Part shown: positions 30,219-37,924 of the stretch, in pieces
Numbering within the stretch: position 1 is the stretch's first letter
Layout: each line of letters starts with the position of its first letter
Virus record (IMG/VR): IMGVR_UViG_3300035670_000027
From: a virus
DNA length: 64,000 bases
Direction: 5' to 3' (one strand)
Program-made: the position numbers and the translations under genes
The notes under the pieces: generated by a model
What the model was told of the DNA's origin: nothing
The model's input: the letters and a program-made list of their open reading frames with translations, nothing else
Database searches by the model: none

Positions 30219-30818
30219 ATGTTACTTTTTAAAGAAATCATCTATCAAGGCGTAAACGCTGGTCAATTGCCTGCGAGAACTTCGGCTGCCCGAAACTGGT
30301 ACAGAGATGCGGCAGAACAAATCTCTGCGCCCAATCGTTTGACGCCTTCAAAGGTTGTTCGATCTTTTCAACAGAAACGCAAAGTTGGAGAGATGACACC
30401 TGGCTACATGTATTTGTTTAAGTACGATCCAAAAGGCAAAGCAGATTTGCCATACTACGATACTTTTCCTTTGATTTTTCCTATCGAAAGATACTCTGAC
30501 GGATTCTTAGGCATCAACTTTCACTACTTGCCACATCCACTCAGAGCAAAACTCATGGATGCAATTTACACTACAACAACAGACAAAAATTATGATGAAA
30601 ATACAAGAGTGAAGATATCTTACAGTATTCTCGCCAGAGCGGCTAAATATAAAGCATTCAAGCCAACTGTAAAGAGATATTTAAATTCTCAGGTTCGTTC
30701 ACCATTTTTAGAGATAACATCGATTGAATGGGATATTGCATTGTTCTTGCCACTAGAAAAATTTAAACGGTCTGACAAAGAATCAATTTGGGCAGACAGT
30801 AGAAGGTTAATCAAGTAA
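30219..30818 (+). CDS. gp2: DNA end protector protein gp2
   Basis: MYLFKYDPKGK..LPYYDTFPLIF, GFLGINFHYLP, KRYL, WDIALFLP. Confidence 0.92.
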   Translation: MLLFKEIIYQGVNAGQLPARTSAARNWYRDAAEQISAPNRLTPSKVVRSFQQKRKVGEMTPGYMYLFKYDPKGKADLPYYDTFPLIFPIERYSDGFLGINFHYLPHPLRAKLMDAIYTTTTDKNYDENTRVKISYSILARAAKYKAFKPTVKRYLNSQVRSPFLEITSIEWDIALFLPLEKFKRSDKESIWADSRRLIK

Positions 30819-31420
30819 TGTTTAGTATAACATCATTCAAAAACAATGTCAAGGTTGTACGACCTAATTTATTCTTTGCAGAAGTAACATTGCCACCAAC
30901 AATTGCTACTGCGGCTGGAGTAAATAACTTCAATCAAACCTTTCGCTTCCGTTGTCAAGCGACAGAGTTTCCAGGAAGAACACTTGCGACTAATGATGAC
31001 ATTTCATTTGGTCCAACAACAAAGTTTGCATACGATACAACATACAATGACCTCAATCTACAGATTATTGCATCTGAAGATATGGCTGAAAGAAAAGTTT
31101 TTGAAACTTGGATGGACAATATCGTTACAAAGCCTGGACTAAATGCAGGAACTTTTAGAGCCACCGGCGGTCTTGCAACTGGAGGTTTTGTTCGATATTA
31201 CAATGACTATGCACAAGGAGGCAAAGTAACAATTTATCAGGTTAACGATCAGCGTGTGCAACTTGCTAAGTGCGATCTCAATGGTGCTTTTCCAATCGGT
31301 ATTGGACCAATGAACCTTACTTGGGAAGAGTTTGATAGTTACCAAAGATTTAGCGTCACAATTGCATATAGATATCATGTTAATGACTTTACGCAGAGAA
31401 CACTTTCTGCAATCACATAA
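30818..31420 (+). CDS. Tail-tube initiator gp54 / gp19-like protein
   Basis: RPNLFFAEV, CQATEFPGR, ERKVFETWMD, YYNDYA, AFPIGIG. Confidence 0.78.
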   Translation: MFSITSFKNNVKVVRPNLFFAEVTLPPTIATAAGVNNFNQTFRFRCQATEFPGRTLATNDDISFGPTTKFAYDTTYNDLNLQIIASEDMAERKVFETWMDNIVTKPGLNAGTFRATGGLATGGFVRYYNDYAQGGKVTIYQVNDQRVQLAKCDLNGAFPIGIGPMNLTWEEFDSYQRFSVTIAYRYHVNDFTQRTLSAIT

Positions 31421-31435
31421 TTAAGGAGAAACATT

Positions 31436-32179
31436 ATGGCTTTACCACAAATTAACACACCCACATTTGAATTGACTTTACCTTCCTCAGGTCAGCAAGT
31501 TCGATACAGACCATTCTTGGTCAAAGAACAAAAAATTCTTTTGATGGCATTAGAGAGCAAAGAATCAAGCGAAATGCTTCGTGCTATCAAACAGATTATC
31601 GCAAACTGTTGTTTAAGTGAAGGCGTAAAAGTTGACGCACTTCCAATGTTCGATTTGGAATATTTCTTCATGCGCCTTCGTGCAAAATCAATTGGTGAAA
31701 CAATTGAATTGAATCTAACTCACTTTGAAAAGACAAATCGTGAGATGAATGAGTGTGATCATACTACAAAATTCACACTCAATCTTATGGAAGTTGAAGT
31801 TGAAAAAGATCCAGAACATCAAGTCAAGATTGTTCTTGATGAAGAAAAGCAGATTGGTATTGTATTGAAATATCCAACCATCTCGCTTGCAGATAAAATG
31901 CAGAAAGCAGACACAAAGAATCAAATGGATGTAATTGTTGATGTTGTTTGTCAATGTATTGACTACATCTTTGATGCGGAGAACACATATCCAGCGTCAG
32001 AATCGACAAAGCAAGAATTGCAAGAATTCATTAACAACCTTAGCCAAGAGCAGTTCGCTAAGATTAACGGATTCTTTACCACAATGCCTAAACTCAAGCA
32101 TACAATCAATTGGCGTTGTGACAAGTGTGGTACAGATGATCACATTACGCTGGAGGGTATGGCAAATTTTTTCGGATAG
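31436..32179 (+). CDS. gp26: Baseplate hub assembly protein gp26-like (candidate tail chaperone, frameshift N-part)
   Basis: MALPQINTPTFELTLPS..YRPFLVKEQKILLMA, DLEYFFMRLRAKSIGE, FFTTMPKL, C..C, LEGMANFF. Confidence 0.9.
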   Translation: MALPQINTPTFELTLPSSGQQVRYRPFLVKEQKILLMALESKESSEMLRAIKQIIANCCLSEGVKVDALPMFDLEYFFMRLRAKSIGETIELNLTHFEKTNREMNECDHTTKFTLNLMEVEVEKDPEHQVKIVLDEEKQIGIVLKYPTISLADKMQKADTKNQMDVIVDVVCQCIDYIFDAENTYPASESTKQELQEFINNLSQEQFAKINGFFTTMPKLKHTINWRCDKCGTDDHITLEGMANFFG

Positions 32180-32218
32180 CATTGTCTAGTGATAACCTAA
32201 CTAATTATTACAAGACAA
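32152..32218 (+). promoter_or_regulatory. Putative -1 programmed ribosomal frameshift signal (internal SD, slippery site, hairpin)
   Basis: GGAGG 32152-56; A_AAT_TTT and T_TTT_TTC 32164-73; hairpin TTGTCT-A-GTGATAA/TTATTAC-A-AGACAA 32182-32218. Confidence 0.7.
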
Positions 32219-32382
32219 ATTTTGCTCTGATGCAACATCATAAATATAGTTTAACTGAACTAGAAGAGATGATGCCATTCGAAAGAGAAATTTATATTAT
32301 GCTTCTAACGCAGTTCGTTAAAGAAGAAAACGAAAGACAAAAACAACAAGAGGCTAACATGAGAGCCCGAACTAGAAGATAA
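32182..32382 (+). CDS. gp51: Small gp51-like baseplate hub assembly protein; probably made as a -1 frameshift extension of gp26
   Basis: NYYKTNFALMQHHKYSLTELEEMMPFEREIY; only a weak TTG start; lies in the -1 frame of gp26. Confidence 0.82.
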   Translation: MSSDNLTNYYKTNFALMQHHKYSLTELEEMMPFEREIYIMLLTQFVKEENERQKQQEANMRARTRR

Positions 32383-32387
32383 AATAA

Positions 32388-35300
32388 ATGGCAGATTTAG
32401 TTGGTAAGTTAGGTCAAACAATCAAAGGCTCTGTTCAAAACTTTGGAGCCGGATTCAAACAGGCAGCCATCTCAGGCAATCCTGCGCTTTTTGGTGCAGG
32501 ATTGAGTGTTTTAGGAAAAGCATTCGAAAAAAATACCTCTGAAGAAAAAGCAGACAGAGCAAAAGATCGTGAAGAGAGAAGACGCCAAAGACAGTTTGAT
32601 GAAGAGAATCAAAACGAACAGAGAAAACTAGACAATGACATTCTAGGCACACTTAAATCAATTGAGAAAAGCGTTGAAGCAATTCTCGCAATTCTTGATA
32701 AGAAAGACAAGCCTGGCTTTGGTCTCGGACCTCTTCTTCTTCTTGGAAAAGGTGTAGAGCAATTAGTCAAAGGTTTCAAGCCATTCTTAGAAAATCTTAA
32801 AAAGTTCTTTACAGTTAAGATACCAGACTTTTTTAAGAGCATATTCGACAAAATCAAAATTCCAAAAATTGCAGATAGTCTTACGAAACTGTTAGGCAAT
32901 CTTGCTGATTTATTTAAGAACGCATTTCAAAAACTCAAACTTGGATTTGCAGAAAGATTTCCGAAACTTCAAAAAGGTATTGATGAAATCTTCGATGTAA
33001 TTCGAACATCAATTCGCTTTGTTGGTAATCTCATTAGTGATCTATTCAATCGTGTGGCGCAACTCGTTACACGAATCATGCCTTCAATTCCAGGAATGCC
33101 AAGACCTGGTGCCGGTAAAGCGCCAACAATTAAACAAGAAGGTACAAGATTTAGAAGCACAGAAACAGGAAAGTTTGTTTCTGCTGATGCCGCTAAAGCC
33201 GCTGGTTATGTTGATGATGCCGGTGCAGTAGTTAAAGGTGTTGATACTGCCGCAGATATTGCAAAGGTTGGTGTCGTTGGTGCTGGTCTTGCTAAAATTC
33301 TAGGCGTATTCAAAGGTCTTGGTGATGTACTCTCTGGACCTATAAAAGCATTTGGTGAAATTACTGATGTGCTTGCTTTTGCAAGAGGTTTAGGTAAAGT
33401 CATTGTACCGCTTGGTGTTATCATCTCAATCTTTGATGGTATCTTTGCGGCAGTTGATACTGCAACACTTGAAAAACAATTTGGTCCAGGCAATGTAGGA
33501 ATTCAACAGAGAATCGCCGCATTCATCGGTGGCTTCATTGGAAGTATCGGTGGTCTCTTTGATGTGCTTGGCAAACTCATGGGCATCGATACTGGCGAGG
33601 GTGAGAATTCAATTCAAGGTCAGATGACCGCCTTCTTTACAAAAGTATCTGATGAAGTATTAAGTGGCATTGCCGCATTCTTAAAATTCATCGGTACGAT
33701 TATTACTTCAGACACATTTCAAGAAGTTTGGAAAGCCGCAAAAGAAACATTATCAAAAGGTTTTGAAGCCGTACTCGCACTCTTTACGCTAATCAAAGAC
33801 ATATTCATGTCTGATACAATGATGTACATCTACAAGGTAATAGGTGGCATCGTTGGCGAAACAGTTAAGACTGCACTTAAAGCACTTGGAAATATTGTAG
33901 AGTTTATTCTTGGATTGATCACATTTGATACAACCAGAATGGCTGGTGCAGTAAAAAATCTTGCAGGAAATATTGTTGAAGGTATTGGTAATATCTTCAA
34001 ATTAATTGCAAACACTCTCATTGAAGGTATGAATGCATTTATTGATGCATTACCTTTACCTCAGTCTCTAAAAGACAGAGCGAAAATAGGTAAGTTTGCA
34101 ATACTAACTCAAAGAGATAGAGAGTTAAATGCGCTTACTGAAACTGTAGCCGCACGACCAAAAGATGCCGCAGCCGCCGAAGAGTGGGACAAACAATATG
34201 GTAAGTTTTATGATCGATCAGGCAAACTAAAAGCCTCTACACTTAAAGAACAAACTGAACTCAGAAAACTCATTGCAGATGGAATGTATGACGCATTGAA
34301 GCGTCCTGGTTCGTTATCTGTAAGTGAAGCATTAAATATTAGTGCAAAAATTACTCAAGATGAATTTGAGTGGCAACAAGAACAAGCAAGAAAAACTGAA
34401 CAATATCGTGCAGAAAGAGATGCATTACAGAAACGATTCTATACTACATTAGAAAATGGTTTTGAAAGAATGCTCACTAAAGGTGCCGGTGGTTTTGGAA
34501 AAGGTACTGCACCTGGTGGCGCAAGAAGTGCAATCGAATCTGCAATTGGTCCAGCATTTCAAAAACTTGGAACCAGAATATTTGGTAAAGAGATGGGTGG
34601 GGAGATGGGTCAAATCTTCACACAACTCTTTGGTAGTTACGGCGACCAGATAGCAACTCAGGTTCTTGGTCCTGCCCTCTTTGGTGCAAATAAAACTGGT
34701 GGTGAAAACGCAAATCGATTCTTCAATAGCCTTGCGAGTGGCAACAAGAAGAATGCGATGGAAGATTTCATCTATGGAACAACAGGCATTTCAATTGGTT
34801 CTAGAAGTGCGTTAGGATATGAAAAAGGCACTAAAGAAATTGCAAAAGAACTTGCACAAGTATTAGGTACACCTTTCGATCCACTCTTCAGTCTTGATCA
34901 AGCGGAGCGCCAAAGACTTGAGCAAGCAAATGCAACCAGTCAGCCTATCGTTGACGCAATTGAAAGACAAACTATAGCACTTACAACACCACCAACAGTA
35001 GCAGGTGGAGGTGCCGTAGTCGTTGATCCTGTTACAGGACAAGTCATATCTGGTTCAAGAGGAATTTATGGTGGCGGTGGTGGAGGCGGTGGTGGTGCCG
35101 CAGGAATGGTCGGAGCACAAGGCTCTCTCATTCCCGGAATGCCAGCAACATCCAAGGCGCTAATCAATTTTGGTAGTCAATATCTAGGAAGAAAACTTGG
35201 TGTAGATACATCTACATTTGGTGGTGCAATGGCACAGACTGGATTGAGTGCCGCAGTCAACGCCGCACTTACTGGTGGTGATGTATTAAATGCATTAACA

Positions 35301-36968
35301 AGCATCAACTCCATTTCTAGAATGGGTGAACAAATTTCAAGACTAGGTGTTGAAGGTATGATGAGATCCACATCTGGCTTTGGTCAAGCCGCAGGAAGTG
35401 CGGCAATGAACTTTGGTGGTGGTTTACAGGCTGGTGGTTCTGGTGGTTTCTATAGTATGTCAAATGTTGGAACCATGACTACGGCTGGACAAGTAGGTTA
35501 TGTCGCAGGCGTGATTGGTGCCGCTATGACTGCTAAATCAATTTCTGATGCATTCTCTGGTGGTTATAAGTCTGGCGTTGGTGACGCCGTAGCCGTTGTT
35601 GGTTCGTTCTTCGATCCAACAGGAGGATTTATTGCTGGTGCCGTTGGTGGTATTGTGAATCGTCTGTTCGGTCGTAAAGCACCAGAAGTTACAGATACAG
35701 GTATTACAGGAACTCTGAAGACCGATTCTGTTTCACTAAAACAATACACAGACATTCTAGAAAAAGGTGGTACTTATCGTAGTGATAAACGATACACACA
35801 ATATGCTGATCTTGATCCTAAACTTGTAAAAGGCATCACAATGGCGATTGGTGCTTTGGTTGACGGCATTAAGAAAACTGGTGAAGCAATGGGGCTTGAC
35901 CGAGCAACCGCTTCAGCATCATATCGTGATGCATATCAAAAATTGTTGAGAGGCGAATTTACTCAAGAGGTTAGAGTTTCACTCAAAGGTTTGTCTGAAG
36001 AAGAACAAAAAGAAGCACTAGAAAAGATGATCACAGATTTTGCTGAAGGCTATCTGAGAGATGCTTTTGGAACTACACTTGATCGATTCCAAAGATCAGG
36101 AGAAAAACTTTACGAAACATTTGACCGTTTGACTAAAGCGGCAATCGCAATGTCTGACATTACATTGAAACTTCGTTATAATTACGATGCACTTAATGTT
36201 GCCTTAGACGAATTTGATGCGGCCGCATTGGCAGATAGATTCTTTGATCTTGCTGGTGGCATTGACAAGTATGCAAAAGATGTTCAATTCTACTTTGAAA
36301 ACTTCTATACTAGAGAAGAGCAATTAGAATATGCCGCAGAAAAAGGTCGCCAACTAATGGAAGCATCATTAGAAAAAGTTGGTCTTGATGCTTCAATGAG
36401 TGTCAAAGGTTTGACTGATATGATGGGTGAGAATTTTGAAGATGCTAGAAAAGCATATCGTAAAGTCGTTGAAGATTTCATTGCCGCTAATGGTGGCATG
36501 GAAGAGATTGTAAGAAAAGGCGATCCAAAAGTTATTGAACAACTTGCAAGACTGCAAGGCGAACTTGCACAAGAATACTATGCAACTGCAAAAGCAATTC
36601 AAGAACTTGATAGAATTAAAGGAACATCAAAAGAAGCATTGACTGGTGCCGCTAGAGCAATCTTCATGGCAGACATGGCTGCCGCAGGAAGATCATTTGC
36701 GGTTGGTGGTATTACATCAGGACCTAGATCAGGTTATGCCGCAATGCTACACGGAACTGAAGCGGTTGTTCCTCTGCCAAATGGTCGTGAGATTCCAGTC
36801 GAATTGAAATTTCCACAATCTGAATTGGGTATGAATCGCACATACATTAACAATATTGTTGGTAACGGAAATGCTACAGTTAGATCGTCTCCAACAAATG
36901 TGATCACATCAACACCTCAAGCAACTTCTGGTTCATCACCAAACAGAGTACTCTCTTCCGCATATTAA
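32388..36968 (+). CDS. Tape measure protein (gp29 position)
   Basis: 1526 aa, Ala/Gly-rich amphipathic helices, follows gp26/gp51; C-terminal FAVGG..GPRSGY.AMLHGTEAVVPLP TMP-type motif. Confidence 0.8.
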   Translation: MADLVGKLGQTIKGSVQNFGAGFKQAAISGNPALFGAGLSVLGKAFEKNTSEEKADRAKDREERRRQRQFDEENQNEQRKLDNDILGTLKSIEKSVEAILAILDKKDKPGFGLGPLLLLGKGVEQLVKGFKPFLENLKKFFTVKIPDFFKSIFDKIKIPKIADSLTKLLGNLADLFKNAFQKLKLGFAERFPKLQKGIDEIFDVIRTSIRFVGNLISDLFNRVAQLVTRIMPSIPGMPRPGAGKAPTIKQEGTRFRSTETGKFVSADAAKAAGYVDDAGAVVKGVDTAADIAKVGVVGAGLAKILGVFKGLGDVLSGPIKAFGEITDVLAFARGLGKVIVPLGVIISIFDGIFAAVDTATLEKQFGPGNVGIQQRIAAFIGGFIGSIGGLFDVLGKLMGIDTGEGENSIQGQMTAFFTKVSDEVLSGIAAFLKFIGTIITSDTFQEVWKAAKETLSKGFEAVLALFTLIKDIFMSDTMMYIYKVIGGIVGETVKTALKALGNIVEFILGLITFDTTRMAGAVKNLAGNIVEGIGNIFKLIANTLIEGMNAFIDALPLPQSLKDRAKIGKFAILTQRDRELNALTETVAARPKDAAAAEEWDKQYGKFYDRSGKLKASTLKEQTELRKLIADGMYDALKRPGSLSVSEALNISAKITQDEFEWQQEQARKTEQYRAERDALQKRFYTTLENGFERMLTKGAGGFGKGTAPGGARSAIESAIGPAFQKLGTRIFGKEMGGEMGQIFTQLFGSYGDQIATQVLGPALFGANKTGGENANRFFNSLASGNKKNAMEDFIYGTTGISIGSRSALGYEKGTKEIAKELAQVLGTPFDPLFSLDQAERQRLEQANATSQPIVDAIERQTIALTTPPTVAGGGAVVVDPVTGQVISGSRGIYGGGGGGGGGAAGMVGAQGSLIPGMPATSKALINFGSQYLGRKLGVDTSTFGGAMAQTGLSAAVNAALTGGDVLNALTSINSISRMGEQISRLGVEGMMRSTSGFGQAAGSAAMNFGGGLQAGGSGGFYSMSNVGTMTTAGQVGYVAGVIGAAMTAKSISDAFSGGYKSGVGDAVAVVGSFFDPTGGFIAGAVGGIVNRLFGRKAPEVTDTGITGTLKTDSVSLKQYTDILEKGGTYRSDKRYTQYADLDPKLVKGITMAIGALVDGIKKTGEAMGLDRATASASYRDAYQKLLRGEFTQEVRVSLKGLSEEEQKEALEKMITDFAEGYLRDAFGTTLDRFQRSGEKLYETFDRLTKAAIAMSDITLKLRYNYDALNVALDEFDAAALADRFFDLAGGIDKYAKDVQFYFENFYTREEQLEYAAEKGRQLMEASLEKVGLDASMSVKGLTDMMGENFEDARKAYRKVVEDFIAANGGMEEIVRKGDPKVIEQLARLQGELAQEYYATAKAIQELDRIKGTSKEALTGAARAIFMADMAAAGRSFAVGGITSGPRSGYAAMLHGTEAVVPLPNGREIPVELKFPQSELGMNRTYINNIVGNGNATVRSSPTNVITSTPQATSGSSPNRVLSSAY

Positions 36969-37021: not shown

Positions 37022-37924
37022 TTAGTCTTCGGCTAACTTTTCAAAGTAACTCAAACTTTCGTCATCGTCATCATTCCAAGGTGGTGTGTCATCCTCAACA
37101 GTCTTAGCCTTAACTGGTTCGGATTTCTTTGAAATAGGTTGACTTGGTTTCTCAACAGCCACAGTATCATTCTCAAGATTAAGAACCAAATTCAAACGCT
37201 TTTTCAATTCGTCATAAGATTTGAAATTGCTTTCTGCAAGAAACTCAGAGAGTTTGTGTTCAGACTTCCAAATCTTTTCAAGGTCATCATCATCTTCACT
37301 CAGTCGAGCAGGTGAATCAAATTCAGACTTGTCATAGTTAGTGTAGCCTTCTACTTTGCGAATCTTCAGTTTGAAGTTCGCACCTTCCCACAAGTCAAAT
37401 GGATTGACTGGTGATTCATCTTCAAACTCAGGATTCATCATATCGTTGAGTTTGTCGAAAATTTTCTTGCCATACTTGAACAAGAAAACTTTACCTTCGT
37501 TGTCAGGATTGGCTGGATCCTTAACAACATAGATGTTGGAAATGTATTGCAGTTTACGCTTTTGCTTTCTGGCAATCTCTTTGTCAGATTCAAGACCAGA
37601 ATTCCATAGCACAGAGTTATACTCTGAGACTGGATCTTTTTTGTTTAGCGTAGTGAGGGAATTCTCAATGTACCATTGACCAGTAGGTCCTTGGAATGAG
37701 TGTGAGAAGAGTTGAACCCAAGGCATGTCTTCGCCTTCGGCGGCAGGAAGAAAACGAATAACTGCTAATCCGTTACCTGCTTTGTCGACCGTTGCTTTCC
37801 AGAAGCGATCATCTTCATAGGACTTCTTTTCGCCATCTTTAGAGTTGAGTTTGTTGACTTGCTCTGTCAACTTTTCCAAATCTTTGGTGCGTGACTTGCG
37901 TAGTTCTGCGAATGAATTTGCCAT
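37022..37924 (-). CDS. gp32: Single-stranded DNA-binding protein gp32
   Basis: DDRFWK..DKAGNG.AVIRFLP, WYIENSLTT, YVVKDP.NP.NEGKVFLFKYGKKIFDK, acidic tail SYFEKLAED. Confidence 0.96.
   Translation of the reverse strand: MANSFAELRKSRTKDLEKLTEQVNKLNSKDGEKKSYEDDRFWKATVDKAGNGLAVIRFLPAAEGEDMPWVQLFSHSFQGPTGQWYIENSLTTLNKKDPVSEYNSVLWNSGLESDKEIARKQKRKLQYISNIYVVKDPANPDNEGKVFLFKYGKKIFDKLNDMMNPEFEDESPVNPFDLWEGANFKLKIRKVEGYTNYDKSEFDSPARLSEDDDDLEKIWKSEHKLSEFLAESNFKSYDELKKRLNLVLNLENDTVAVEKPSQPISKKSEPVKAKTVEDDTPPWNDDDDESLSYFEKLAED

Follow-up and report, generated by a model that had tools for sequence, protein, structure and literature searches.

Does the junction between gp26 and the small gp51 of this T4-like virus separate two genes, or does it lie within one gene that yields a short and a long tail-assembly chaperone? 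The original prediction had described the end of gp26 as a complete −1 frameshift cassette, built like that of E. coli dnaX and placed upstream of the tape measure gene. We followed this up in the window, that is, the whole stretch of 64,000 nucleotides of IMG/VR record IMGVR_UViG_3300035670_000027, and in its relatives. Judged by sequence comparison, the phage very probably makes both forms of the chaperone from one gene via a −1 slip. The features involved are the following.

5' of the tail-tube-like gene, plus strand: gene for a DNA end protector (gp2-like), phrog_429.
30818-31420, plus strand: gene for a tail-tube-like protein of 200 aa; phrog_45 'tail tube', E 8.4e-32.
31436-32179, plus strand: gp26, 247 aa, predicted short form of the chaperone (TAC-N); PF12322 T4_baseplate, E 1.1e-64; phrog_150.
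32152-32156, plus strand: SD-like GGAGG, a possible stimulator in this lineage.
32164-32170, plus strand: upstream heptamer A_AAT_TTT, not conserved.
32167-32173, plus strand: slip site T_TTT_TTC, with T6 and its register unchanged in relatives.
32177-32179, plus strand: TAG stop of gp26 in the 0 frame, one codon past the slip site.
32173-32382, plus strand: C-terminal extension of the predicted long form (TAC-NC), 69 aa and stop, −1 frame; it contains the gp51 ORF (32182-32382).
32182 (TTG) to the stop at 32380-32382, plus strand: small gp51 ORF, 66 aa, −1 frame; phrog_634 'baseplate hub assembly catalyst'.
32182-32218, plus strand: hairpin of 13 bp, 8 nt 3' of the heptamer, lineage-specific.
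32388-36968, plus strand: gene for the tape measure protein, 1526 aa; phrog_1535 (E 4e-19), plus four further tape-measure phrogs.

The gene order, with the tail-tube-like gene followed by gp26, gp51 and the tape measure gene (ATG at 32388), places the chaperone gene directly 5' of the tape measure gene, and a similar order is found in phages P10VF, pf16, PX29 and R10Z. The window gp26 is a member of PF12322, scoring 218.6 bits at a family cut-off of 24.5, and the C-terminal extension matches phrog_634 with an E of 4.4e-29. In relatives the slot 5' of gp26 is annotated as tail tube protein or as gp54 baseplate-tail tube initiator; by BLASTP, the 200-aa tail-tube-like protein had no similarity to T4 gp54 or gp48. 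A scan for promoters and terminators around the gp26-gp51 junction gave nothing above chance.

Compared with T4 gp29 (590 aa, gene 29 being 1773 nt long), the tape measure protein is larger by a factor of about 2.6, and its length suggests a tail much longer than that of T4. Among T4-like cyanophages, S-CREM2 is reportedly long-tailed. In the window the tape measure gene adjoins the chaperone gene with neither gp27 nor gp28 between them, whereas T4, with the order 51-27-28-29, has genes 27 and 28 between gene 51 and tape measure gene 29. Directly after the tape measure gene, an ORF of 300 aa on the minus strand (37022-37924) begins with MANSFAELRKSR; judged by eye, its product may be a single-stranded DNA binding protein of the T4 gp32 type.

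The anatomy of the junction was as the original prediction had described it. Gp26 ends ATG GCA AAT TTT TTC GGA TAG, both heptamers are in the X_XXY_YYZ register, GGAGG lies 10 nt 5' of the second heptamer, and the hairpin could be located and folded after its 8-nt spacer. The −1 frame is open from 32140 and leads into the gp51 ORF, whose stop is separated by a few nucleotides from the start of the tape measure gene. A slip would therefore join 246 residues of gp26 to 69 residues of the extension, giving 315 aa in place of the 247 aa of the unshifted product, and the fusion would be the same whichever of the two heptamers was used. The predicted junction reads ...LEGMANFF-RIALSSDNL..., with the junction peptides ...LEGMANFFR and IALSSDNLTNYYK. 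TTTTTTC is, however, common by chance, so that the presence of the heptamer alone proves nothing and its significance comes from conservation. The window holds 29 copies against 41 ± 6 expected, 98 of 100 shuffles having at least 29, a scarcity that is consistent with a general avoidance of slippery U runs.

The comparison set comprised 80 IMG/VR loci, with gp26 identities of 38-92%, and one cyanophage locus; these 81 loci gave 63 distinct junction regions, and 57 distinct junctions over the aligned 130 nt. The −1 frame holds gp51 in 81 of 81 loci (gp26 identity 38-100%), each of which has a T run 3-6 nt before the gp26 stop. Counted from the first T of the run, the distance to the stop is 10 nt in most relatives, with 7 or 13 nt in a few. 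T_TTT_TTN is in register in all 57 distinct junctions, at gp26 identities down to 38%, and over these junctions the six T columns have zero entropy, two synonymous sites included. Elsewhere in gp26 of the same set, TTT makes up 59.5% of the Phe codons, and Phe-Phe pairs at other places have mixed codons, with T_TTT_TTY in 13 of 124. The base after T6 is C in 51 junctions, A in three and T in three, and the codon after the slip encodes Arg in 53 of the 57, as CGN or, with TTA in place of TTC, as AGG. Conservation of the register could also have been inherited with the conserved x-Phe-Phe residues instead of being selected.

The site is also found beyond this comparison set. A tblastn search with the 71-aa −1 peptide gave matches in 591 phage records, and we inspected nine named distant phages: Syn30, S-H34, the Vibrio phage R10Z (Schizotequatrovirus), the Aeromonas phage PX29 (Angelvirus), the Caulobacter phage Cr30, the Agrobacterium phage Atu_ph04 and the Rhizobium phage P10VF (both Pootjesviridae), the Pseudomonas phage pf16 and the Pseudoalteromonas phage XG4. 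All nine, from several families, carry a run of T6-T7 in the same register, and in the eight that were measured the run begins 10 nt ahead of the gp26 stop and the −1 frame encodes the C-domain. An assembly or homopolymer error was also considered and ruled out, since over 60 independent assemblies and isolate genomes share T6 and the frame relation.

Conservation is likewise seen in what the −1 frame encodes. Its translation is conserved from the heptamer onward, as FFR[IL]xLSH[DE]NLxNYYKTNFALMQHHKYSLTELEEMMPFER, and past the gp26 stop the entropies at the three codon positions of the −1 frame are 0.62, 0.32 and 1.14. Thus the heptamer, the −1 register and coding ahead of the annotated gp51 start, which the original prediction had proposed to align across T4-like phages, are all kept. 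Conservation that begins before any start codon also argues against two separate genes, with small gp51 made from the TTG at 32182 by initiation or by termination-reinitiation coupling and no fusion formed. This TTG is indeed in frame and lies 2 nt past the gp26 stop, which speaks for separate genes, as does the annotation of two genes in many database records, but it is without a good SD, as had been predicted. Moreover, in many relatives (L005, L007, L008, L014, L043, L064 and others) the first in-frame ATG, GTG or TTG comes 20-34 codons downstream, within or past the conserved block, so independent initiation cannot explain those relatives. Together with the colinearity of T4-type gp51 across the junction, described below, this makes two separate genes a highly improbable account of the locus.

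Annotation of this region varies between records. For cyanophages and other phages of the T4 superfamily, two genes are given, or gp51 is left out, in most GenBank entries. In RefSeq or GenBank, the cyanophage records Syn30, S-CAM1, S-SSM4 and ACG-2014b have no annotated gene where the conserved gp51 extension lies, probably for want of a start codon there. In Syn30 (L082, NC_021072), for example, the extension occupies 1501-1689, the 'baseplate hub' gene ends at 1513 and the next CDS runs from 1694.

The phages that carry a T4-type gp51 provide an in-frame counterpart of the predicted fusion. Transcription of genes 26 and 51 is divergent both in T4 and in Aeromonas phage Aes012, and residues 1-201 of gp51 (249 aa) match PF12322 with an E of 3.9e-52 in T4 and 2e-45 in Aes012; T4 gp26 and gp51 score 213.1 and 177.5 bits against this family. 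Over its last ~50 residues gp51 aligns with the −1 peptide of the window from peptide residue 2 (T4 FKLLVNPDE...YSLNSISKMIPAER versus window FRIALSSDN...YSLTELEEMMPFER), and the window extension aligns with residues 200-246 of T4 gp51 and with the C-terminus of Aes012 gp51. On phrog_150, T4 gp26 covers positions 14-235, T4 gp51 covers 13-280 and the window extension covers 231-278. Since gp51 carries the PF12322 part and the C-extension in one frame, T4-type gp51 is the colinear in-frame equivalent of the predicted fusion, and in the alignment the junction falls exactly at the T run.

The elements around the slip site fared differently from the slip site itself. A_AAT_TTT is canonical in 29 of the 57 junctions, the others having AAG, ATC, GAG or TAG before TTTT, and with a −1-frame TAG at this place in two relatives it was ruled out as the functional site. 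GGAGG, whose spacing in the window would suit a stimulator, is present in 28 of the 57 junctions and GAGG in eight, with neither in 21, and since GGAGG overlaps the conserved Leu-Glu-Gly codons, a role as stimulator is confounded by coding. The hairpin of the window is stable, with an MFE of −14.9 kcal/mol (z −2.9) that none of 200 shuffles attained. Over the relatives, RNAalifold gave 0 consensus pairs 3' of the heptamer, and folding the 60 nt 3' of the heptamer sequence by sequence in 57 relatives gave a mean z of −0.24. At the position of the named hairpin 63% of cells are paired in relatives, compared with 35-53% in slid controls, with covariation that is weak and not convincing, and a similar stem is kept only in the window, in its close relatives L002 and L004, and in L011, L012 and L016. 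The hairpin was ruled out as a conserved stimulator on these results.

Across the family, the claim of a complete dnaX-like cassette therefore holds for the second heptamer, which is conserved, and not for the first heptamer, GGAGG and the hairpin, which are not family-wide. The alignments show the U6 heptamer alone to be the universal element of the putative cassette, and GGAGG and the hairpin may tune the slip in this lineage, outside the conserved device.

A slip on U6 could be made by the ribosome or by RNA polymerase. Stuttering of the polymerase on T6 would add one U to some transcripts and bring the 315-aa fusion into frame with no ribosome shift, and two observations fit such stuttering: the conserved element is a pure homopolymer, T6 or at times T7 or T8, after which the seventh base varies, and a conserved RNA stimulator was not found in 57 relatives. 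Efficient slippage of bacterial RNA polymerase usually needs runs of ~8-9, however, and the commonest form here, T6 followed by C, is short of the runs that favour it; in addition, the X_XXY_YYZ register of the run and a frame relation of −1 are kept in every case. Published observations touch both possibilities, as U7 and A7 runs cause mRNA indels, whereas UUY codons are highly shift-prone in E. coli and heptamers with homogeneous X and Z shift more (PMC4066793). The 'other mechanism' in PMC10885494 is read there, in the passage concerned, as the two-gene solution of T4 and not as slippage. Polymerase slippage, the serious rival, is in our view quite unlikely. We consider it probable that ribosomal −1 slippage on U_UUU_UUC gives the 315-aa long form that is paired with gp26, the ribosome being favoured by a run that is always in register and always −1 and that most commonly is T6 followed by C. 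It is rather doubtful that the universal U6 site either has gained dnaX-like stimulators, in the form of GGAGG and the hairpin, in this lineage with its unusually long tape measure protein of 1526 aa, or acts across relatives by RNA polymerase slippage. Stimulators, if real, would raise or tune the ratio of long to short chaperone, and polymerase slippage, if real, would make the chaperones of the T4 superfamily mechanistically unlike lambda G/GT.

The structure of gp26 was modelled by AlphaFold2 with a mean pLDDT of 87.8. Foldseek of the model against the PDB gave no match below an E of 0.001, and its row of highest probability was 2OB9 (E 0.66), the tail assembly chaperone of HK97. When residues 1-95 of the model were compared with the Foldseek candidates by VIA-align, 3FGX (Z 8.1), 2OB9 (Z 7.4) and 5IR0 (Z 6.0) stood above the next unrelated row (Z 4.3), although a Z below 8 may mean no more than a common arrangement. 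Residues 1-86 of the model align with 84 of the 107 residues of 2OB9 at an rmsd of 3.8 and a sequence identity of 10%, and residues ~96-247 have no counterpart in 2OB9. Searching PDB sequences with a profile of the gp26 alignment retrieved nothing relevant. The model thus lends moderate support, not proof, to a resemblance between the N-domain of gp26 and the tail assembly chaperone fold.

Classical tail assembly chaperones are about half as large as gp26, which has, beyond the chaperone-like N-domain, a second domain (~96-247) with conserved cysteines. C58 is invariant and C107, C228 and C231 are nearly invariant, and the conserved cysteines could form a metal-binding site. For residues ~96-247 the structural comparison gave no match.

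Taken together, the slip site, the −1 frame, the colinearity of T4 gp51 and the N-domain model agree with the original prediction that gp26 and the gp26-gp51 fusion are forms of the G/GT type. In the ribosomal reading that we prefer, a minority of ribosomes at UUU-UUC (32168-32173) would slip back by one base on U_UUU_UUC, bypass the TAG at 32177 and read the −1 frame to 32382. The product would be the TAC-NC of 315 aa with the junction ...MANFF-RIALSS..., its last 69 residues being what is called 'small gp51', while gp26 would be TAC-N, the short form of a tail or hub assembly chaperone. As lambda G/GT does, the pair would act on the tape measure protein, whose gene follows after 5 nt. We infer the ribosomal nature of the slip, its efficiency, its stimulation by GGAGG and the hairpin in this lineage, and the binding of the tape measure protein.

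The original prediction had taken the usual two-gene annotation to be wrong, and the comparative evidence for one gene with a slip indicates that this annotation is indeed incomplete. The locus should be annotated as one gene with a slip and two products, of 247 aa and 315 aa, and the labels 'baseplate hub' and, for a free protein, 'hub assembly catalyst' should be dropped. The prediction knew of no earlier description of such a frameshift in T4-like phages. As far as the relevant passages of PMC10885494 and PMC12846349 go, it is already known from Vladimirov et al. 2022 (Virology 566:9-15), who described it in the same gene family and the same phage group as in the window; by the same passages, some T4-like phages have a short gene and a long fused gene that replace the frameshift. 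The concept being published, the value of the present analysis lies in confirmation, a correct annotation and a clean comparative data set.

In T4 itself, gp26 and gp51 are hub assembly chaperones, and gp51 is absent from the particle (PMC3004832). PF12322 and phrog_150 include T4 gp26 (208 aa) and gp51 (249 aa) as well as the predicted products in the window, but T4 has its two forms from two divergent paralogous genes without a slip site, whereas the window very probably has one gene with a slip site.

The window can also be set beside two well-known frameshift systems. The −1 frameshift of E. coli dnaX consists of an SD, A_AAA_AAG and a hairpin. The window resembles it in having GGAGG and a hairpin on either side of the heptamer and differs in the heptamer itself and in that neither stimulator is conserved across relatives; moreover, the shifted product is longer than the unshifted one in the window, whereas it is shorter in dnaX. 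A conserved −1 frameshift in the tail genes of long-tailed phages, with lambda gpG and gpGT, is said to have been described by Levin et al. in 1993 and by Xu, Hendrix and Duda in 2004. Compared with lambda, gp26 (247 aa) is larger than gpG, to which it has no detectable sequence similarity, and carries the extra domain with conserved cysteines, and the slip site is U_UUU_UUC in place of G_GGA_AAG. As in lambda G/GT, the locus in the window is predicted to give two products with a common N-terminus from a gene that lies between the tube-like and tape measure genes, which would bring the T4 group under the otherwise general rule of a short and a long tail chaperone in long-tailed phages.
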